Origin: Moraxella sp.
Lineage (GTDB): Bacteria > Pseudomonadota > Gammaproteobacteria > Pseudomonadales > Moraxellaceae
Direction: 5' to 3'
NCBI RefSeq assembly: GCF_030525845.1
Contig: NZ_JAUNDY010000003.1
Location: 72,552 to 136,551, forward strand
DNA: 64,000 nucleotides
Shown here: piece by piece, positions 30,831 to 47,409 of the stretch
How the letters are laid out: every line of letters begins with the position of its first letter
Position numbering within the stretch: position 1 is the first letter of the stretch
Position numbers and translations under genes: made by a program
The notes under the pieces: model-generated
Told to the model about the DNA's origin: nothing
Database searches by the model: none
The model's input: only the letters and a program-made list of their open reading frames with translations

Positions 30831-30928
30831 TCCTATGATTTATAAAATCTTGTTATTCTACCTTATTTTTATCAAGCTGAAAAGTCCAACACTTCCCAAA
30901 TAAAACAATAAAATCATGCATAAAATAG

Positions 30929-30957
30929 ATGACAACACCCAAAAAACCTGCTATAAT
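30929..30957 (+). promoter_or_regulatory. Sigma70-type promoter for tRNA-Ser
   Basis: ATGACA (-35), 17-nt spacer, TATAAT (-10) about 10 nt upstream of the tRNA 5' end. Confidence 0.5.
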
Positions 30958-30968
30958 CTGCCCCCATT

Positions 30969-31059
30969 GGTGATGTGGCTGAGTGGTCGAAAGCGCACGC
31001 CTGGAAAGTGTGTATACGTTAATAGCGTATCGAGAGTTCGAATCTCTCCATCACCGCCA
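30969..31059 (+). tRNA. tRNA-Ser (anticodon GGA)
   Basis: Near-identical to my recollection of E. coli tRNA-Ser(GGA); long variable arm; ends CCA. Confidence 0.9.
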
Positions 31060-31065
31060 TATATA

Positions 31066-31097
31066 AGCCCCCACGTTACAGTTGGGGGCTTTTTGTT
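31066..31097 (+). terminator. Rho-independent terminator after tRNA-Ser
   Basis: agccccca / tgggggct 8-bp stem plus TTTT. Confidence 0.7.
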
Positions 31098-31108
31098 GAA
31101 TATCTACC

Positions 31109-31411
31109 TCATTCACACTCTTCATCTTCTAATGCCAGCCGATGAATATAGCGTTCAAATAAAAACGGTGCAAAAGGTAGAACTGACGCAACAAGTCCAA
31201 TAATAAAGACTTTGAGCGACCATTGTCGTAACTGACAAACAACCAATAGTACCACGATAAAAGCAATAAACAACACACCATGTGCCATACCTGCATACGG
31301 CACTAAAAATGGCTTATCAAATTTATACTTTAATGGCATGGCGATGCCAAGCAAGACAATAAACGAAACGCCTTCCAAAAAGCTAATTAGACGAAGGTGG
31401 GTGGGGGTCAT
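31109..31411 (-). CDS. Small membrane protein (DUF3817-like), hypothetical
   Basis: 100 aa, 3 TM helices. Confidence 0.4.
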   Translation of the reverse strand: MTPTHLRLISFLEGVSFIVLLGIAMPLKYKFDKPFLVPYAGMAHGVLFIAFIVVLLVVCQLRQWSLKVFIIGLVASVLPFAPFLFERYIHRLALEDEECE

Positions 31412-31431: not shown

Positions 31432-32403
31432 TTATTTTAATAAACGGATTTGGGTCTTATCATCATTTAATTCAAAATGTTTACTGTTAATATGTTTGAA
31501 CATATCTTCGGCACTTGCAAAACCACATTTCTCTGGGTTAATCCTAATGTTTTCGTATAATGTTGTGAAATCCACCCATTGCTCAACGCCGTAGCGAGTT
31601 CTAATAACTTTCTCCACAACATTCTCAAATATTTCCAATTGATACTTCCATTCCAAAAAAGTTCTCACAAGAGAAAAAACATAATCTTTTGCTTCATCCA
31701 AAGAAAAACAATTTTTTTTATCAGTTTTCTTCGTGGTAACACCATGCCTAGACAGCAAACCAACAACACTAAAATTGTTAGCTGGTTTGGTTAACTTATC
31801 TTTATCTGTTTTGAATTCTTCAAGATTTGGATAATTAGCACTCTCCGCAAAAGTAATTAAAGACTCATAAATTTTATACAAGTTAGCCCAATCATTATCA
31901 AAATACACAAGTTTCAATAAAATATAGACATCAGCAAATTTTTTTTCATCATTTACCACCTCTTCTATTGATTTGTTTGATAAATACAATAAAGCATTAA
32001 AACCAAAAACCCTTAAAATATCATCTTTATCAATCAGGGAGCTTACATTACTATCATTCCAAGCATTGTGCAATGTGTAGTTTTCAATCTCAAACTCACC
32101 CATATATTTTGTAAAAATAGAATCATTTTTTATTAATTCTATTCTATTTAACTCCTGATATGATGACAAATGATAGTAATCATCATATAGTTTGTAATAG
32201 GCTTTGAGTAACTGTAGTAGCTCTCCTGCTACCAAGAAAGCTTCATCTTCACTAAGGTTGGCTGACAGCAGCGGGCTGGTAGCCCTATAATCCTGCAAGC
32301 TACAATCAAGCATAATATCAATACTATCATGGACGGAAAATACCCCCCCCTGTATATGAGTCAAAGCTTTCAACTCTTTGCGTTTGAGGCAATCTAATTT
32401 CAT
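31432..32403 (-). CDS. Hypothetical cytoplasmic protein, low GC (orphan islet gene next to tRNA-Ser)
   Basis: ~323 aa from 'MKLDCLKRK'; the longer ORF start would overlap the topA 3' end; AT-rich codon usage; no recognisable motifs. Confidence 0.4.
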   Translation of the reverse strand: MKLDCLKRKELKALTHIQGGVFSVHDSIDIMLDCSLQDYRATSPLLSANLSEDEAFLVAGELLQLLKAYYKLYDDYYHLSSYQELNRIELIKNDSIFTKYMGEFEIENYTLHNAWNDSNVSSLIDKDDILRVFGFNALLYLSNKSIEEVVNDEKKFADVYILLKLVYFDNDWANLYKIYESLITFAESANYPNLEEFKTDKDKLTKPANNFSVVGLLSRHGVTTKKTDKKNCFSLDEAKDYVFSLVRTFLEWKYQLEIFENVVEKVIRTRYGVEQWVDFTTLYENIRINPEKCGFASAEDMFKHINSKHFELNDDKTQIRLLK

Positions 32404-32420
32404 AGCGATTATTATAAAAA

Positions 32421-35108
32421 TTATCCATTTACCCACGCCCCATTTCTCCACACAAGTGCAAACTTAGTCGCCTTACCGTCCTTTTCCGAGCCGACATATT
32501 GCTCTGACGATTTACGAGACCAACGCACAATCGTTGGATTGCCGTCCGTGTCCACTTCTGGGGCGGTCAGTAGGTAGTGAAATTTGGGGTCAAGTTCGCC
32601 TTGCACCGTTTTTAATTCACTCACTTTGGGCGGGCGGGTTTCACGCACTTTGGGGAATTTGCTTGCCGCCAAAAACAAGCCTGCCGCCCCTTCTCGCAGT
32701 ACAAAATGGTCATCAAAACGAGCTGAACGCAAATGGGGCATAGCGATAGCGGTCATTCGTGGCGGAGCGGCTTCGCCATTTTTTAAGACTTTACGAGTAT
32801 TGTCGCATTTTTGGCAAGCAAAATACGCCCCAAACCGCCCTGTTTTTAGCTCCATTTGCCCATCGCATTTGTCGCAGTCTATGGTTGGAGCGTCCGATTT
32901 GCCTGCTTGCTCAAACACCCCTTTTTCCAAAAGATAGCCATCGCAGTCAGGGTTATTGCCACAAATGTGCAGTTTCAATCCACCGTCCACAATGTAGCCG
33001 TCCATTGCCGTGTGGCATTTGGGACAGCGTTTTTTGGTCAATAGGTCAGCAATTTCATCGGTGGTGTCATCCTCGTCAAGCCCCTTTAAAGCCTGACTGG
33101 CAAACGCCTCCACCGCCATTAGGTTTTTGGTACCTTTACAACGCTCTTTGGGTGGTAGGTTGTAGCCCGTACAGCCCAAAAACACCCCCGTTCCGCCCGT
33201 GCGAATCTGCATTGGGCGGTCGCACAGCTCACAATGGACATCAGGCACATCGGTTGGGTTGTTGGGTCGCATACCGTCTTTGCCTTTGGCGATTTCTAAT
33301 TTGCCCTTAAAATCGCCATAAAATTCATCAAGCACTGTTTTGTAATTTTGCTCGCCATTGGCAACATTATCCAGCTTATCCTCCAAACTTGCCGTAAAGC
33401 TATAATCCATCAAATCAGGAAAACTCTGTGTCAAGCGGTCGGTAACAATGTCGCCCATTTTCTCGGCAAATAGCCGTTTGTTTTCGGTGCGAACATAGCC
33501 CCGCTCTTGAATGGTGGAGATGATGGAGGCATAGGTGGACGGTCGCCCAATGCCTCGTTTTTCAAGCTCTTTGACCAAACTTGCCTCGGTGTATCTGGCA
33601 GGTGGTTTGGTAAAATGCTGGCTTGGGTTTATGCCATCCACCACCAAAGTGTCGCCCACTTTGACATCAGGCAAAAGCACATCGTCCGACTTAGCAGGGG
33701 GATTGACCCTTGTATAGCCATCAAAGGTCATCACTCGCCCCTTTGCCCGCAGTTCCACATCGGCTGACTTGACGGTCAAGGTGGCGGATTGATATTGAGC
33801 AGGGGTCATCTGACAGGCGACAAACTGCTTCCAAATCAGCTCATACAAGCGTTTGGCATCTTGCTCCACATCTTTTAAATCTTTTGCTTGCACCAAGACA
33901 TTACTGGGGCGAATCGCCTCGTGAGCTTCTTGGGCGTTTTGTTTATTGCCATAGACATTGGGCGATTTGGGCAAATACTTATCGCCAAAATTTAACCCAA
34001 TAAACTCCCTGACAGCCGTCAATGCGTCCGCACTCAAAAAAGTGCTGTCGGTACGCATATAGGTAATATGCCCTGCTTCGTACAGGCGTTGGGCTAGGAG
34101 CATTGTTTTTTTGACATTAAAGCCAAGCCGAGTACTCGCCGACTGCTGTAAGGTAGAGGTAATAAAGGGGGCAGACGGCTTGGAACTGGTGGGCTTTTCG
34201 TCTCGCTCACTGACAATAAAGGGGTTATTTTTTAAAATATCAACGACTTGTAGGGTTTGGCTTTCGTTTTTTAAATTCAGCTCTTTGCCGTTTTGTTTGA
34301 CCGCCTCTAAGCGAATGATTTCGCTAGATTTTTCTTGGTGAGTGTCGGCAAAAATTTGCCAATATTCTTCTGGGACAAAGGCTCGAATTTCCCGCTCTTT
34401 TTCTACCACAAGGCGAGTTGCCACGCTTTGCACACGCCCAGCCGACAAGCCCCGAGCGACTTTCGCCCACAAAAGGGGCGAGACCATAAAGCCGACCACA
34501 CGGTCAAGAAAACGCCGTGCTTGCTGAGCATTGACCCTGTCCATATTGAGCGTTTCGGGGTTGTTAAAGGCTTCGGTAATGGCGTTTTTGGTGATTTCGT
34601 TAAAGACCACACGGCGGTATTTGCTGTCCGCTCCACCAATCACTTCCTTTAAATGCCACGCAATCGCCTCCCCTTCTCGGTCAAGGTCAGTCGCCAGATA
34701 AATGGTATCGGCACTTTTGGCAAGGGCTTTTAACTCTTTGATAACTTTGGTTTTATTGGGCAAAATCTCATACACCGCCTTCCAGCCGTTTTCGGGGTCC
34801 ACGCCCATTCTGCGGACGAGTGCTTGCTGGGCTTTTTCTTCACGGCTTAGTTTGACTTCGCTGTCTTTTTCTTTGGTTTTGGCGGTGTCCTTATCCGCAC
34901 CCCCTGCTGTTTGTGAAGAGACAGGCAAATCACGGATATGCCCCACGCTCGACCGCACGACATAGTTTGACCCCAAATATTTGTTGATGGTTTTGGCTTT
35001 GGCGGGTGATTCCACGATGACAAGGGATTTGCCTTTTGCGGTGGGGGTGTCCACCACATCGTCCTGATTGTTGGTTTTTTTGGAGGTGGTTTTTTTGGGA
35101 AGTACCAT
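32421..35108 (-). CDS. topA: DNA topoisomerase I
   Basis: 895 aa; TOPRIM N-terminus; C-terminal zinc-ribbon Cys clusters. Confidence 0.9.
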
Positions 35109-35198: not shown

Positions 35199-35675
35199 TT
35201 AGGGTTGATTGCCCATTTCCACCAAAAATGCCTGCAACTGCATCAAATCTTGCTCGATCACTGTCATGGCATGTTCATCTCTGACCGAAAAACTTTTGAC
35301 ATACGGCTCATCTTGCCAATAAATCGTAACACAGTTTGCCTTTGACATGACCCCTTTAATGTAAGCCTCACAAAACTTAGGAGGCAAGATGTCTGATACA
35401 GCATCGCCCTGCCACGCACCATCTGTCCACACTAAATACCGTGCAGGCAACCGCCATTCATCATTGATGAGGGTGTATTGGGCTATCATGCCACCTTTAT
35501 CCGCCACCCCGACAAGCCAGTCAGGTATGGGTACAAGTTTGGGGTTTAGGTCTAATTTGCGAGCAAACAACCTCATGTCGCCGACACGCACCTCGCTTGC
35601 CTTTGGCTTTAAGCCCATGATGTTGCCAATCACAAACAAGATGGCAGCAACGACCACCAATGTGCTAATGCTCAT
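35199..35675 (-). CDS. Hypothetical membrane-anchored protein
   Basis: 158 aa; N-terminal TM then a soluble domain; 4-bp overlap with the upstream receiver gene. Confidence 0.4.
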   Translation of the reverse strand: MSISTLVVVAAILFVIGNIMGLKPKASEVRVGDMRLFARKLDLNPKLVPIPDWLVGVADKGGMIAQYTLINDEWRLPARYLVWTDGAWQGDAVSDILPPKFCEAYIKGVMSKANCVTIYWQDEPYVKSFSVRDEHAMTVIEQDLMQLQAFLVEMGNQP

Positions 35676-36061
35676 AAAGAACGGTTTTTGGATTTTTTGG
35701 CAAGCTCTGCCAGTTTTTTGATGGCATTTACAAGCTTCTCATCAGAAAATGGCTTATAAATAAACCCCCTAGCCCCAGCTTGTAAGGCTTGCAAGGCCGT
35801 CATGCGATCAGACATCGCCGATACCACCAAAATATTCACATCGTCCTTTTTAGCAACGATACGCTTAATACATTCTAATCCATCCATCTGTGGCATGACC
35901 AAATCCATGATGATGAGCTTTGGACGGTACTGCTCATACTTTAACACTGCGTCCGCTCCGTTATTGGCTATCGCCACCACCTCAATATTCGTCTCTTCAA
36001 AACAGCGTTCGATGCGATTACAAATCACACTCGAATCATCTACAATCATCAATTCATTCAT
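35672..36061 (-). CDS. CheY-like single-domain response regulator (receiver only)
   Basis: 'MIVDDSSV', 'IIMDLVMPQMDG', 'VSAMS', 'YKPF' receiver motifs; 129 aa. Confidence 0.85.
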   Translation of the reverse strand: MNELMIVDDSSVICNRIERCFEETNIEVVAIANNGADAVLKYEQYRPKLIIMDLVMPQMDGLECIKRIVAKKDDVNILVVSAMSDRMTALQALQAGARGFIYKPFSDEKLVNAIKKLAELAKKSKNRSL

Positions 36062-36085: not shown

Positions 36086-38182
36086 TTATTCTGGATTAAA
36101 ATTCAGGGTGATTTTGGTGCTCATGCCACGATTGCTATCTACTTGCACCTTGCCCTCCATCTCTTTTACCCACTCACGCACCACATCCATGCCTACACCA
36201 CGTCCAGCATCTTCACTAAGCGTCTTGGCGGTGGAGAGTCCAGAGCGGAAAATCAGCGGATATAGTTTGCTGTCAGGTACATTTGCCAATGCCTCAGCGG
36301 TTGCCATGCCAAGTTCCACCGCTTTTTGACGCAAAGCATCTACGTCCACGCCTGCCCCATCGTCCATGATACTCATACGAAGCTGATTGCCATAGTTAGC
36401 CAACATAAGTGTGATTTGCCCCACTGGGTTTTTGCCGACCTGTCTTCTACCCTCAGGTGTCTCGATACCGTGTGCGATGGCATTTTTAAGAAGCTGAATG
36501 CCCACATCTTGACAAAACTTCATCGCCTTTTCGCTCATGGCAATCTCGTCAAATCCTGTAACGTTTAAGGTTACTTGCTTGCCTTGGCGTGTGGCGACCT
36601 GCTGGGCGTAGTCAGCAAAATAAGCCGTCCATGGTGCTTGCGATGTTGGTACTTCTGTTGCTTGCTGGGTGTTATCCACAAATGTATCAACCCCAGCAAA
36701 ACCCTCTGTCTGCACTTGATTTTGAGCTTGACCGACATTGGCTAGGCGATCAAGCAGTTTTTCAACAAATTGGGTCAAATCCAAAACATCATTTAAGACC
36801 ACCGCAAAACCCAAAAAGTCCTGCCCCACCACCGTATTTTGTTTGCGTAAAATTGCAAGTTCGGTTTCGCCTTTTTCGGCAAGTTTGACAAAGCTTTCCA
36901 TCTTGATGGCAGATGCCTCGCCTTTTAGGGCATGCATTTTACGAAGCAGGGTCTGGGCTTTATTGTGTAGCTGTCCTTCGTTACGCAAAATCTCATTCAT
37001 CTCATCGACACGCTCATAGGTACTGGCAATGAAGCGATTGAGCAGATGAACATCAATATTGAGAATATGCCCCATCATCTCCATCTGGCGGTCATGCTGG
37101 GCTTTTTCGCTCTCCAAGGTTTTTTCAAGTACGGCAGAGTCGGTTACATCAACCACGTTGACAAAGATTTGTTTGGCATCATCTTCTTCATCTTCGTGTA
37201 CCCTTAAAAAGCTAAATGACAAATATTTAACGATGGGTTCGCCCTCTTCACTCAAAAAGCCCACACGCACCTTTTTGAGTGGGTTTAGGTCATCAATCAA
37301 CTCTGACACCACCCATGGATTATGCAGCTGCTCAATAAACAGCTTAGTTTCAGCAAGTTCCTGCGAGCCAATCATGTCTTTTAGCAAATCAAGTAACGTC
37401 CTACCTGCAATATCATGACGACACAAAATCGTCTCTAAGTTTTTGGAATACGACTCTGCCACCACAAAATTTCTGTCAATCAAGAATAGACCTTCTTGTA
37501 CTGTATCCAAGATATTGGCAGTTTGGCGACGTGCTTGCCTAATAGCATCATCAGACTGTCCGATTTTTTTGAGGAAATAAAAGAAAAACCACGAAATATA
37601 CAAAAACATCAAAATCACACCGATAATCAATGTGGATTTAGCAAATTTCGCCCAATACTCACTCTTGTTTAGTTGATTGTTCCAAATTTCATCAAAGAGT
37701 GTATACAGCTGATTCTTGTCCTCATAAATAGATTTCGCCAAAGCAGTGACGTCGCTATCTGCACTCAATGCACTTAGTTGTTTTTCATAATTTTTATCCC
37801 AAGATTTGATTTTTTGGTAGTTGGCAACATCCTCTTCATCTTCTAGCTTAATGATGGATAAGATACTACCATCATCATAATAATAATCTCCACCAGTACC
37901 AAACAGCTCAATGTACTTATCAATAGCTCGATGACTGGTAATGACTTCGTTCATCGCTATTTTTTTCTCTTCTGGGGTTTGAGCGATTTGCCATCTTTGA
38001 GTGTGTAGATTGAGATTATAAAACTCATCACTGAGTTTGCCGATGCCATCATTGATATTGGTATAATACAAGGACTGATGAGTGGCGTAGTAATTTAACC
38101 CAAGCAAAGTTGTGATTAGCACCACAAAGATAATTAACGAAAAAAATAGGTTTTTATATCTAGAATGTAATAAGCCACCCAT
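36086..38182 (-). CDS. Membrane sensor kinase with periplasmic sensor domain, Hpt (CheA-P1-like) and HATPase_c domains; lacks HisKA/DHp and CheW domains
   Basis: TM1 at ~aa 12-30 and TM2 at ~aa 176-196; 'MHALKGEASAIKMESF' Hpt His motif; C-terminal G1/G2 ATPase boxes 'DDGAGVD...GRGVGMDVV'. Confidence 0.75.
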   Translation of the reverse strand: MGGLLHSRYKNLFFSLIIFVVLITTLLGLNYYATHQSLYYTNINDGIGKLSDEFYNLNLHTQRWQIAQTPEEKKIAMNEVITSHRAIDKYIELFGTGGDYYYDDGSILSIIKLEDEEDVANYQKIKSWDKNYEKQLSALSADSDVTALAKSIYEDKNQLYTLFDEIWNNQLNKSEYWAKFAKSTLIIGVILMFLYISWFFFYFLKKIGQSDDAIRQARRQTANILDTVQEGLFLIDRNFVVAESYSKNLETILCRHDIAGRTLLDLLKDMIGSQELAETKLFIEQLHNPWVVSELIDDLNPLKKVRVGFLSEEGEPIVKYLSFSFLRVHEDEEDDAKQIFVNVVDVTDSAVLEKTLESEKAQHDRQMEMMGHILNIDVHLLNRFIASTYERVDEMNEILRNEGQLHNKAQTLLRKMHALKGEASAIKMESFVKLAEKGETELAILRKQNTVVGQDFLGFAVVLNDVLDLTQFVEKLLDRLANVGQAQNQVQTEGFAGVDTFVDNTQQATEVPTSQAPWTAYFADYAQQVATRQGKQVTLNVTGFDEIAMSEKAMKFCQDVGIQLLKNAIAHGIETPEGRRQVGKNPVGQITLMLANYGNQLRMSIMDDGAGVDVDALRQKAVELGMATAEALANVPDSKLYPLIFRSGLSTAKTLSEDAGRGVGMDVVREWVKEMEGKVQVDSNRGMSTKITLNFNPE

Positions 38183-38350
38183 GTACTCACCTTTATTTTA
38201 TCAGCACAATTATGATAGAGGTTAAATTATCCCACACCAAATCAGCCAATCTGACCGACTTAGATTTTAAGGATGGAAGCTCACACATTTTATACTAAAA
38301 TCTTAAAATATTCTAACATTAATTTGATGACTGATGGTTTTTTGACAAAA

Positions 38351-38378
38351 TAAAAACAGCCCAATGATTTGGGCTGCT
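38351..38378 (-). terminator. Rho-independent terminator after the Roadblock gene (minus strand)
   Basis: cagcccaa-tgat-ttgggctg stem with TTTTT on the minus strand; separates the GTPase unit from the kinase unit. Confidence 0.55.
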
Positions 38379-38470
38379 TACAAAATGCCTAACGGTTAAA
38401 ATGACCATGCACAGAGACGATGACCATTTTAAAATTTGGAGTGTATTTGCCGTGCTGGTTATGTGGTTTC

Positions 38471-38911
38471 TTATTTGCCGTGATACAAGCCGTCAAGCTC
38501 GACCAAACGAGCAGTAGCTTTATTCATGGCATGCATGATTTGACCAAGCAGCACTTGCTGTCTTGTAACCACAATCAAAATCATTGGCTGGTTGGCATTA
38601 GGCACAGAACCAATCATGATTTTACCATTTTCGGCATCTAAAATCACAGAACGGCAACCTGTCAACTGAGCCTCACTCGTCAAGGCCTGCACCAATGCCA
38701 AAATGGATGAGCCAACTGCCGAGAGCTTATTACCATCATAATTTTTTTGAAAAATGGACGACACTTCAAAACCATCTGACGATGCCAAAAGTACGCCATC
38801 TACACCAGCGGTCGAATGCACCAACTCATGCAAGACTTCTTTTGAGATGGTAATAAACTGTTCGGCAGGCTTAACACGATTAGAATCCAACTTAAAGGGA
38901 CTAAGACTCAT
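38471..38911 (-). CDS. Roadblock/LC7 domain protein (MglB/CvnB-like)
   Basis: 146 aa; 'GVDGVLLASSDGFEVSS' Roadblock core. Confidence 0.75.
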   Translation of the reverse strand: MSLSPFKLDSNRVKPAEQFITISKEVLHELVHSTAGVDGVLLASSDGFEVSSIFQKNYDGNKLSAVGSSILALVQALTSEAQLTGCRSVILDAENGKIMIGSVPNANQPMILIVVTRQQVLLGQIMHAMNKATARLVELDGLYHGK

Positions 38912-38959
38912 TAATTTGCTCCAATATTTTTTATAAAATCATTTGGGTTGCTGCGAGGT

Positions 38960-39484
38960 TTATACCTGCTCCAAGCTTGCAATGATACTCTCAACAAGCA
39001 ACAACACATCTTCACGCTTACGCATGTCCACAGGAAATAGCGGTAAATTGCGTCCAATGCTCGCCAAATAATCACGATAGATAGAAAATTCACGCTCAGG
39101 CTTTTTATCCACTTGACTAATGCCTAGTACAATGCGTCCCTCATAAATACCATCAAAGGTTTTTAGGTAGTGTGCCAAATCTGCCACAGGGTCTTGGGCA
39201 GAGTGGTCAATTAAAATCACAACCCCCAAAGCACCTTGTGAGAGAATGGGCCAAATGAAATTAAAGCGTTCTTGTCCCGGTGTGCCATACAGCCCAATAC
39301 TCGCCCCACCCTCAATGATAAGCTCGCCATAATCCATGCCAACCGTTGTGAGCAATTTGGCATTGGTATCAAGGTCGGTATTCATGACCTCTGTGGATAC
39401 CACAGGAATGTCAGACAAACTAGAGATGGCTTGGGTCTTACCTGCACCCATTGGACCGCTAAACACAATTTTTAAACGTTGCAT
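38960..39484 (-). CDS. Ras-like small GTPase (MglA/CvnD-like)
   Basis: 174 aa; P-loop 'GPMGAGKT', switch-II 'GTPGQERF'; no canonical NKxD. Confidence 0.75.
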   Translation of the reverse strand: MQRLKIVFSGPMGAGKTQAISSLSDIPVVSTEVMNTDLDTNAKLLTTVGMDYGELIIEGGASIGLYGTPGQERFNFIWPILSQGALGVVILIDHSAQDPVADLAHYLKTFDGIYEGRIVLGISQVDKKPEREFSIYRDYLASIGRNLPLFPVDMRKREDVLLLVESIIASLEQV

Positions 39485-39554
39485 AATGCTACCTAAATGA
39501 TTTGATGTATTTTATTACAAAAAGCGTGAATATTCAATGCGGAAGACGCACCAA

Positions 39555-40625
39555 TCATATCCCCAGTTTACGGCGTAAACGTGCCAAAAAGCCTAATTTT
39601 TCTTCTTGCTCAGCACTTTGTGGCACAGGTACGCCCTCTGGCTCTGGCACGCTAGACGATGAAGCACTTGGCGTAGATGCAATCACAGGCGTGATGACCG
39701 CTGTGATGACTTGATAGTTCTCATCACTAAGATGTTGAGCAAACAACAAAGACACCACTACTTTTTGGACAAATAAGCGACTAAGCCCCGTACGTGCCAC
39801 CAGCTCATCTATCGTGCGAGCTTTATCTTCTAGTGCCACCATTGCACGCAATAGAGGACGTCTTTCGGTGTTGTTGTCGGGTTTTACCCACGAACGAAGC
39901 TGATAGCGAGCATCTTTATCTACAAGAGGCAGTAGTTTATCAGCATTTTCCCATGCCACCTGATAAAGCCACTGATTCATGTCAATGGCACGACTGGGTT
40001 CGTCTGGTGTACCGCCCATACGAAGTCGCCATGCCGTAACATCAACCGTCTGCATACTCTTTAACCACACCAACTGACGTGAACCGTCAATAACAGCAAT
40101 TACTTCGCCGTCTTGCAGAAGTTCGAAGTTGGCTTTTGGGCGAGCGTGCAGCGTCTTTATCATCTCTATCACATCAGACAATTCGGTACTTGATGAGATG
40201 GGCTTTGGCTGTGCTGCTGCTGAGGGTCGCACAGGCTCAGATGCGGTGCTAGCAGGTGTCTTTTGGTAAGGTATGCCTTTTAGGACATTGACATTATCAT
40301 GCAGCCAATTATTTAACAGTCCAATTTGTTTTAGGGGCAACACCAATACATCACCTACAATGCGACCGTCACCCATTTCACTGCGACTGACGTACAGGGT
40401 AGGTGTGTTTGGATGCGCTTCTTGCAGTTTTTGTATGCTGGTAGAATTTCTAAAATCCTCATTAACCACATACAAATCCACACGACCAACCTGAACAGAC
40501 ACCCAGTCCAAATCGACATCTAAGCGAAGAAGTACTCGCAAATACCCCTTAAAGGTAACTTGGTCGGCGGGACTGACGCCAACCATTGCAATCTTCATGA
40601 TTTTCTTACTGTCAATATTTTCCAT
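39555..40625 (-). CDS. Hypothetical protein: degenerate receiver-like N-terminus, Pro/Ser/Ala-rich linker, conserved C-terminal domain
   Basis: 356 aa; 'KIAMVGVSPADQ...DLYVVNEDF' resembles a receiver fold lacking the acidic pocket; 'TPASTASEPVRPSAAAQPKP' linker. Confidence 0.4.
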   Translation of the reverse strand: MENIDSKKIMKIAMVGVSPADQVTFKGYLRVLLRLDVDLDWVSVQVGRVDLYVVNEDFRNSTSIQKLQEAHPNTPTLYVSRSEMGDGRIVGDVLVLPLKQIGLLNNWLHDNVNVLKGIPYQKTPASTASEPVRPSAAAQPKPISSSTELSDVIEMIKTLHARPKANFELLQDGEVIAVIDGSRQLVWLKSMQTVDVTAWRLRMGGTPDEPSRAIDMNQWLYQVAWENADKLLPLVDKDARYQLRSWVKPDNNTERRPLLRAMVALEDKARTIDELVARTGLSRLFVQKVVVSLLFAQHLSDENYQVITAVITPVIASTPSASSSSVPEPEGVPVPQSAEQEEKLGFLARLRRKLGI

Positions 40626-47332: not shown

Positions 47333-47409
47333 GCACCTGTAGCTCAGTTGGATAGAGTGTTGGCCTCCGAAGTCAAAGGTCGTGGGTTCAATTCCCGCCA
47401 GGTGCGCCA
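47333..47409 (+). tRNA. tRNA-Arg (anticodon CCG)
   Basis: Cloverleaf with loop CUCCGAA; GTTCAATTC T-arm; ends CCA; similar to E. coli argX-type tRNA. Confidence 0.85.

Follow-up and report, generated by a model that had tools for sequence, protein, structure and literature searches.

A transmembrane sensor kinase of Moraxella with a CheA-type P1 and P4 core, a CheY-like partner and neither P3 nor P5

We analysed a window of 64 kb of DNA from Moraxella sp. (the window is always this whole stretch of 64,000 nucleotides), and within it a gene on the minus strand, 36086..38182, encoding a membrane-bound sensor kinase of 698 amino acids (aa). Behind a periplasmic sensor of its own, this kinase carries a CheA-P1-like Hpt domain and a CheA-P4-type ATP-binding domain, and none of the DHp, P3 and P5 domains. 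We propose, with a probability of about 0.75, that it is a self-contained, array-independent CheA-type ('class II') sensor histidine kinase, passing phosphate from H417 to D53 of the CheY-like protein encoded beside it. The best reading of the layout is that of a chemoreceptor and a CheA core merged, in effect, in one polypeptide, which would need neither CheW nor a receptor array. Topology, domain identities, the absence of P3, P5 and DHp, and the conservation of residues and of operon partners were all computed here. An earlier reading of the same DNA, hereafter the original prediction, had recognised the Hpt and ATPase parts and had tied the kinase to a neighbouring small-GTPase unit; its first half stands, with two amendments (a PAS domain in place of a linker, and a third gene in the operon), and the second is not supported.

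A P1 and P4 core behind a membrane sensor

The kinase open reading frame (ORF) starts with ATG, preceded five bases ahead by a Shine-Dalgarno sequence, AAGGTGA. Its parts, from the N-terminus on, are as follows (TM, transmembrane; 4HB, four-helix bundle; AF2, AlphaFold2; pLDDT, the per-residue confidence of the AF2 model):

36086..38182, (-), sensor kinase gene, 698 aa: 4HB sensor, TM, PAS, CheA-P1-like Hpt, CheA-P4; stop codon 36086-36088
38096..38152, (-), TM helix 1 (TM1), residues 11-29; Kyte-Doolittle peak 2.47, helical in the AF2 model
37631..38095, (-), periplasmic sensor domain, residues 30-184; chemoreceptor-type 4HB with a small beta hairpin at 98-110
37562..37630, (-), TM helix 2 (TM2), residues 185-207; Kyte-Doolittle peak 2.36
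37145..37561, (-), PAS-fold domain with an N-terminal cap helix, residues 208-346 (core 231-345), found by fold search
37058..37144, (-), helix connecting PAS and Hpt, residues 347-375; helical in the AF2 model, holds the non-conserved H363
36710..37057, (-), CheA-P1-like Hpt four-helix bundle, residues 376-491; predicted phospho-acceptor H417, with K420, G421 and E439
36632..36709, (-), flexible P1-P4 tether, residues 492-517; pLDDT <50 over 491-514
36089..36631, (-), CheA-P4-type ATP-binding domain, residues 518-698, where the protein ends without P5; N box Q563, N567, H571 and E574; G1 box D607, G609 and G611; G2 box G660, G662 and G664

Pfam recognised only two domains in the kinase, Hpt at 380-468 (26.6 bits, cut-off 24.6) and HATPase_c at 563-695 (E 2e-11), and the NCBIfam CheA models covered just residues 522-695, that is P4, with 158 bits against a full-length cut-off of 950. 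The Hpt motif, HALKGEASAIKMESF, includes H417 (codon 36932-36934), and N567 of the N box lies 150 residues beyond it. The claim of an Hpt motif followed some 150 residues later by a HATPase_c domain with G1 and G2 boxes was thus borne out, with the Pfam score above its cut-off and with H417, G1 and G2 unchanged in 30 homologues.

The relation to CheA was established by comparing the family profile with a profile of 13 genuine CheAs (hhalign), the sub-profiles being compared domain by domain. In this comparison the Hpt domain matched CheA P1 with 98.1% probability (E 1e-13); H417 aligned with the phospho-histidine of CheA, K420-G421 with the K-G next after that histidine, and E439 with the glutamate that CheAs conserve. 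As a single sequence against the PDB the Hpt domain gave marginal matches only, CheA P1 among them at E 0.66, so that profile-profile comparison was needed to see the relation. When the full family profile was set against CheA, only P4 aligned (100% probability, 37% identity, residues 520-698), beginning after P3 and halting at the C-terminus of the kinase, exactly where CheAs run on into P5.

Conservation pointed to the same residues. In all 30 homologues, down to 22% identity, H417, G421, E439, N567, H571, E574 and the G1 and G2 boxes are invariant, and K420 is kept in 29 of the 30 family sequences. H417 and H571 are the sole invariant histidines of the family. The original prediction had presumed the Hpt histidine to be the site of phosphorylation; aligned as it is to the phospho-histidine of P1, H417 is the sole plausible acceptor.

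Hydropathy placed a loop of about 155 aa between TM1 and TM2, with basic residues flanking their cytoplasmic ends. This agrees with the earlier description of a 698-aa transmembrane sensor whose two TM helices (11-29 and 185-207) enclose a periplasmic domain, then put at about 145 aa. The periplasmic domain has no Pfam match. An AF2 model of the full kinase, built on the 30 homologues (mean pLDDT 82), runs from TM1 through a helical bundle on the periplasmic side, which includes a small beta hairpin, into TM2, which extends as a long helix, and then through an alpha/beta domain (231-345), a helix (347-375), a four-helix bundle (378-491), a disordered stretch (491-517) and the ATPase (518-695). 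H417 sits on helix 2 of the four-helix bundle.

The region after TM2 had been taken for a cytoplasmic linker. Neither Pfam (E<=1) nor a 16-sequence profile run against all PDB sequences found a PAS match in residues 208-346. Modelled alone by AF2, this segment gave a pLDDT of 84 and a pTM (the global confidence score of the model) of 0.75, and in a Foldseek search of the PDB with the segment model the best 50 matches were all PAS or LOV domains (FixL at E 6e-7, TMq up to 0.65). On its modelled fold, then, the segment is a divergent PAS domain, an identity that we assign because the fold search matched it, where sequence profiles did not. Outside P4, the PAS region is the best-conserved part of the family, and 26 of 30 family sequences have a spacing of 207-215 residues between TM2 and H417. 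The original prediction had overlooked three things: the PAS domain, the chemoreceptor type of the periplasmic domain, and CheX as the family-wide partner described below.

The domains that would make the protein something else were sought in several ways. HisKA, H-kinase_dim (PF02895) and CheW (PF01584) gave no Pfam match in the kinase at E<=1. Against CheA P3, the Hpt domain, alone or with the connecting helix, reached at most 1.2% probability and the tether 0.2%; against CheA P5, the PAS and Hpt sub-profiles reached at most 0.1%. Never more than 11 residues follow P4 in the 30 homologues. P3 and P5 hidden Markov models run against all ORFs of the 64-kb window found no match, nor was there any CheW-like ORF in it, and the annotated flanks of 12 related loci held no methyl-accepting chemotaxis protein or CheW Pfam families. 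No internal receiver was found in the kinase either (no Response_reg match), and the Hpt domain lies N-terminal to the catalytic (CA) domain. A HisKA H-box ahead of the Hpt domain and a C-terminal CheW domain were the two findings that the original prediction had named as speaking against it, and neither is present; its statement that both DHp/H-box and CheW are missing agrees with Pfam, with the profile comparisons and with the lack of conservation of H363.

This histidine deserves a closer look, as one can easily suspect an ordinary class I or hybrid kinase in which the DHp domain and its H-box were overlooked and the Hpt domain is just a relay. The succession of TM sensor, PAS, helix, helical bundle and CA domain mimics class I, in Foldseek the complete model aligns, if loosely, with WalK and LOV-HK, and the connecting helix 347-375 contains a superficially H-box-like 'AQHDRQ', whose H363 is the sole such histidine between TM2 and the Hpt domain. 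We rejected it as a cryptic H-box: it is kept as histidine in 9 of the 30 family sequences and is elsewhere N, S, K, E, A or Q, against the invariance of H417 and H571 alone. There is, besides, no HisKA-type Pfam match at E<=1, no receiver between the putative DHp and the Hpt domain, as a relay would require, and the CA domain is specifically that of CheA P4 and is preceded by the Hpt domain. An overlooked class I kinase is, in our view, extremely improbable. Judged by its sequence, the protein is not a class I (HisKA/DHp) sensor kinase, having no H-box and no HisKA match, nor a hybrid or unorthodox kinase (DHp-CA-REC-Hpt), nor a CheA as defined in PMC10782961 and MiST, since it has P1 and P4, no P3 or P5, and a sensor of its own.

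Two further explanations grant the P1 and P4 domains and dispute what they do. The protein could be a decayed CheA remnant, a pseudokinase that lost P3 and P5 and was kept for scaffolding or ATP binding. Databases call it merely an 'ATP-binding protein', the N-box histidine of CheA is replaced by Gln, and Moraxella and Psychrobacter, which like Suttonella are non-flagellated, might hold relics of chemotaxis. Decay fits poorly, however, with a large family of uniform architecture in which no ATP-binding or phospho-acceptor residue varies at 22-72% identity, in which the active site of the accompanying CheY is likewise invariant, and in which most lineages co-encode a CheY-P phosphatase, sensible only if CheY gets phosphorylated. 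We hold this reading to be very unlikely.

Alternatively, the Hpt domain could take phosphate from another kinase, or back from CheY~P, with P4 acting mainly as a nucleotide sensor and the whole as a phosphotransferase/phosphatase hub. Stand-alone and fused Hpt domains often serve as relays, and the Moraxella operon has no CheX, so reverse transfer could be its phosphate sink. Against this, E439, which is invariant, and K420, which is nearly so, correspond to the CheA P1 residues that tune the histidine for P4-catalysed phosphorylation, the short conserved tether to an intact P4 favours direct catalysis (the stretch spanning it, reference residues 480-520, is 21-51 residues long across the family), and no second kinase is conserved nearby. 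A hub of this kind therefore has, we estimate, only a slim chance of being the right description.

Operon partners and spread of the family

Two genes follow the kinase on the same strand:

35672..36061, (-), CheY-like single-domain response regulator, 129 aa; Pfam Response_reg E 8e-30; D8, D9, D53, S81 and K103 intact
35199..35675, (-), third operon gene, 158 aa; N-terminal TM helix at 3-21; its start overlaps the receiver stop by 4 nucleotides (nt; ATGA)

The receiver gene begins 24 nt past the kinase stop, and the NCBIfam models nearest to its product are those of CheB/CheY receivers. Each of the 19 related loci has a single-domain receiver directly 3' of the kinase, with 38-70% identity to that of the window, and D8, D9, D53, S81 and K103 are invariant among 10 aligned receiver orthologues. 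The pairing with a CheY-like receiver, already noticed in the original prediction, is hence universal in the loci of the family.

Thirteen loci, among them those of Psychrobacter, Marinagarivorans, Lysobacterales, Rhodoferax, Steroidobacteraceae and Brachymonas and some on metagenomic contigs, have CheX (PF13690) after the receiver, as one gene or two. CheX is absent from the Moraxella-type loci and from five further loci, L088-L092. In Moraxella the gene after the receiver, in the slot held by CheX in most other lineages, encodes a membrane-anchored protein of 158-175 aa. In the window this 158-aa protein is apparently translationally coupled to the receiver. It has no Pfam, NCBIfam or PADLOC family match and 8 close homologues only, none of them named, and it is conserved in M. 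bovis and in another Moraxella locus, L087. We considered it as a divergent CheX and rejected the idea: it has no tblastn similarity to CheX, no GE[IV]xNT motif (as drawn from six CheX sequences), no family match, and it does have an N-terminal TM helix.

Upstream of the kinase, five related loci hold a gene for a periplasmic binding protein (Peripla_BP_1/4 or SBP_bac_3) immediately 5':

L086, 6060-6932, binding-protein gene
L087, 6116-6991, binding-protein gene
L088, 272-1183, binding-protein gene
L089, 3500-4555, binding-protein gene
L090, 4354-5400, binding-protein gene

By type they are sugar-binding (Peripla_BP_1/4) or amino-acid-binding (SBP_bac_3), and the gap to the kinase is 10 nt in L087. 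This position, directly upstream in five loci, suggests that some members of the family sense through a periplasmic binding protein. No such gene stands upstream of the window kinase. The same chromosomal slot of Moraxella is occupied either by a binding-protein gene and a 738-aa kinase with a different sensor, or by the 698-aa type without a binding protein, and the sensor module appears to have been swapped.

The family itself is sizeable. A word-indexed search returned 62 proteins with Hpt and/or HATPase_c and no P3/CheW, most of them full-length homologues, while genuine CheAs in the same search aligned over just 23-41% of the query. A profile search over 1.84 billion cluster representatives (50% identity clusters), whose count is a lower bound, found at least 150 clusters at 50% identity, nearly all full-length (E<=1e-180, >=618 bits). 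Members come from beta- and gammaproteobacteria: Moraxella, Suttonella, Agaribacterium, Psychrobacter, Marinagarivorans, Lysobacterales, Steroidobacteraceae, Rhodoferax, Brachymonas and Burkholderiaceae. The N-terminal sensor varies among them (4HB/PilJ-like, GAF, or short). Those that are named go under 'ATP-binding protein', 'Hpt domain-containing protein' or 'chemotaxis protein CheA' only. A peptide-pattern scan of genome contigs, with patterns lying in P4, was dominated by genuine CheAs, and about 10 of its 80 loci were family members. One 4858-aa cluster representative (P0143) matched the family profile in 32 separate stretches, the best of them C-terminal, and is probably a giant multi-Hpt ChpA-like protein. 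A literature search, whose coverage left out most subscription journals, found no account of a TM-PAS-Hpt-P4 kinase.

The neighbouring GTPase/Roadblock unit

Upstream of the kinase and on the same strand lies a module that is separate from the kinase system, with an intergenic region of 288 nt in between:

38471..40625, (-), putative Group 3 MglA-type module; Pfam/NCBIfam ATP_bind_1/small_GTP and Robl_LC7
39555-40625, (-), 356-aa protein
38960-39484, (-), small GTPase
38471-38911, (-), Roadblock/MglB protein
38354..38379, (-), intrinsic-terminator-like hairpin and T-run after the Roadblock gene; 11-bp stem with 5 GC pairs, tail TTATTTTG
38287..38324, (-), promoter-like block upstream of the kinase, TTAGAA-spacer-TATAAA, AATTAATGTTAGAATATTTTAAGATTTTAGTATAAAAT, inferred from conservation with M. 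bovis

Gene content and order of this module agree with the Group 3 MglA systems of PMC4316618. In these systems, described from beta- and gammaproteobacteria by Wuichet and Sogaard-Andersen, a protein of unknown function with a receiver-like N-terminus and a winged-helix C-terminus accompanies a MglA homologue and one or two MglB homologues (PMC4316618). The MglA proteins of Groups 2 and 3 have a G4 motif without Lys and a DxR-like G5 (PMC4316618). The motifs that we read from the translation of the GTPase are a P-loop GPMGAGKT, a G3 TPGQ, a G4 'SQVD' without the usual Lys, and a G5-like 'VDMR' (DxR-like). The 356-aa protein gave a weak winged-helix match only, at 254-282, and no DUF742 match.

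That the kinase lies directly downstream of the GTPase/Roadblock unit is plain in the window, and the terminator hairpin formerly placed at 38351-38378 is seen at 38354-38379, and M. bovis has a comparable hairpin with T-run at the corresponding position. The promoter-like block is the best-conserved stretch of the intergenic alignment (288 nt in the window, 363 nt in M. bovis, L001 7638-8000), and it scores under the threshold of a consensus scan. The rest of the AT-rich kinase leader is poorly alignable between the two, and a search of the 288-nt leader against Rfam gave no regulatory RNA.

From this adjacency a phosphorelay of kinase and CheY had been proposed, with the GTPase/Roadblock switch either under its control or controlling it. 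Such a link would resemble that in Myxococcus, where Frz (CheA/CheY-like) gates MglA/MglB. Several observations lend it colour. The window, M. bovis and another Moraxella all have the two units as same-strand neighbours; the same genomes have no CheX and do have the lineage-specific membrane protein, as if the module had been rewired; a CheY-like regulator without output domain needs a protein target; and the 356-aa partner of the GTPase matches a type reported to have a receiver-like N-terminus (PMC4316618). Adjacency is, however, restricted to the Moraxella loci (window, L001, L002 and L087), in which the whole region from proS to topA is syntenic. No GTPase/Roadblock genes were found near the kinase in 15 non-Moraxella loci, Psychrobacter included (flanks of at most 7-10 kb, less on short contigs). 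At L092, where the kinase is 49% identical, has the same sensor type and also stands next to topA, a Na/Ala symporter and a DUF1543 gene lie upstream instead, without GTPase unit. Terminator hairpin and conserved promoter-like block part the units both in the window and in M. bovis, and the survey of Group 3 MglA systems names no kinase among their conserved neighbours (PMC4316618).

Since the adjacency is confined to Moraxella and a terminator and a promoter-like block separate the units, the link to the GTPase is unsupported, and we regard it as unlikely; the evidence favours the view that the adjacency would be coincidental, a matter of genus-level synteny. A bolder version, which we rate as similarly doubtful, would have a kinase-CheY module captured in Moraxella beside a Group 3 MglA/MglB system, losing CheX and gaining the small membrane protein, with CheY~P gating the switch or its receiver-like, winged-helix partner. 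If such a capture were true, a non-flagellated pathogen genus would possess a minimal counterpart, with a single protein as input, to the Frz-MglA polarity circuit, and the Group 3 MglA systems, so far uncharacterised, would have a first pathway feeding into them.

Elsewhere in this part of the window, a 339-aa ORF without Pfam or PADLOC family lies just 3' of topA (31432-32451, (-)). Its GTG start overlaps the 3' end of topA by 31 nt, and the true start may lie further in. The counterpart slot of M. bovis holds an NYN/OST-HTH protein, which makes this a variable position amid synteny. Rfam (RF00005) located tRNA genes at 30969-31056 (+) and 47333-47406 (+), the first of which accounts for a spurious 95-aa ORF at 30916-31203.

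Proposed mechanism and comparison with known systems

For the self-contained CheA-type kinase, we infer the biochemical steps, the mode of dimerisation, the ligand and the output as follows. A stimulus would be received by the periplasmic chemoreceptor-type four-helix bundle, directly or, as relatives suggest, via a periplasmic binding protein, and would be relayed through TM2 and the fixed-length PAS/helix module to the monomeric P1-like Hpt bundle. This module would control the access of the bundle to P4, which, on its flexible tether of about 25 residues, would bind ATP and phosphorylate H417. As P3, which normally provides for dimerisation, is missing, the sensor, TM, PAS and connecting-helix regions would have to take over that task if a dimer is needed. 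From H417~P the phosphate would then go to D53 of the CheY-like product of the gene that begins 24 nt downstream. In most lineages the CheX encoded next would reset CheY~P, and in Moraxella-type genomes the small membrane-anchored protein takes the place of CheX in the operon. CheY~P presumably acts on a protein-protein target, as the regulator has no output domain.

Several points weigh against this proposal. The family has an invariant Gln, Q563 (codon 36494-36496, (-)), where all 13 aligned CheAs carry the N-box histidine, and catalysis may differ in detail from that of CheA; it is also possible that this residue is a catalytic signature of the family. The Pfam score of the Hpt domain is barely over its threshold (26.6 vs 24.6 bits), and the inter-domain arrangement in the AF2 model is unreliable (pTM 0.43). 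Whether phosphorylation occurs in cis or in trans, and what substitutes for P3, are guesses. Finally, the Moraxella version has no CheX to terminate the signal.

The family shows that the P1-P4 catalytic pair also occurs in a stand-alone, directly sensing TM kinase with its own CheY and, usually, CheX, and the proteins automatically named 'CheA' or 'ATP-binding protein' in these genomes are neither. An active kinase would offer a minimal array-free system for studying how phosphorylation of P1 by P4 is switched; it would stand, as a natural intermediate, between the class I and the class II histidine kinases, and it would add a signalling pathway, so far unexplored, to the veterinary and human-associated Moraxellaceae.

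Among known systems, that of Frz and MglA/MglB in Myxococcus xanthus also has a CheA-type kinase, CheY-like receivers and GTPase/Roadblock proteins in one genome, which here are adjacent. Frz, however, works with a receptor, CheW, a full CheA and a Group 1 MglA, whereas the window has a genus-specific adjacency with a terminator between the units, and a GTPase that best fits Group 3. The actinobacterial conservon (kinase-like CvnA, Roadblock CvnB, DUF742 protein CvnC and GTPase CvnD) likewise sets a sensor kinase-like protein beside a Roadblock protein and an ATP_bind_1-type GTPase. CvnA is described as having HAMP, a histidine kinase module (an autophosphorylated dimerisation domain and an ATPase domain) and a C-terminal LPxR motif, and it lies in the same operon as its partners, with no response regulator. 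We rejected a conservon-like system for the window: the kinase is CheA-type with its own CheY, it is terminator-separated from the GTPase, no DUF742 match was found and the linkage is not conserved.

The sensor recalls the 4HB domains of chemoreceptors (McpN, PilJ, PcaY and Vc1313), which sit on a HAMP/methyl-accepting domain, while the window 4HB is fused to a kinase. With class I TM PAS kinases (WalK and the FixL type), the protein has in common the general topology, PAS, a signalling helix, a phospho-histidine bundle and a CA domain. Class I kinases have a dimeric two-helix DHp joined to CA by a short loop; the window kinase has a monomeric four-helix Hpt (P1) without H-box, and a CheA-type CA on a disordered tether.

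CheA is the textbook kinase unable to sense alone. A survey of 13,673 CheAs, gathered through the MiST database, found P1, P3, P4 and P5 in all of them and a CheW domain in 100%, and states that CheA 'lacks a sensor (input) domain' (PMC10782961). We suspect that the MiST definition of CheA requires a CheW domain, and that the present family would therefore fall outside that survey. With CheA, the kinase shares P1- and P4-type domains, the flexible tether between them, a CheY-like partner and, in most family members, CheX. It differs in having no P2, P3 or P5/CheW-like domain, in its own TM sensor and PAS, and in carrying Q563 for the N-box histidine. Azospirillum brasilense CheA1 is a CheA-type kinase anchored in the membrane by its own TM segments, yet it retains P3 and P5, operates within receptor arrays, and is not known to have a periplasmic ligand-binding sensor in its TM region. 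The kinase of the window, by comparison, would behave as the catalytic core of a CheA that a class-I-style sensor controls directly.

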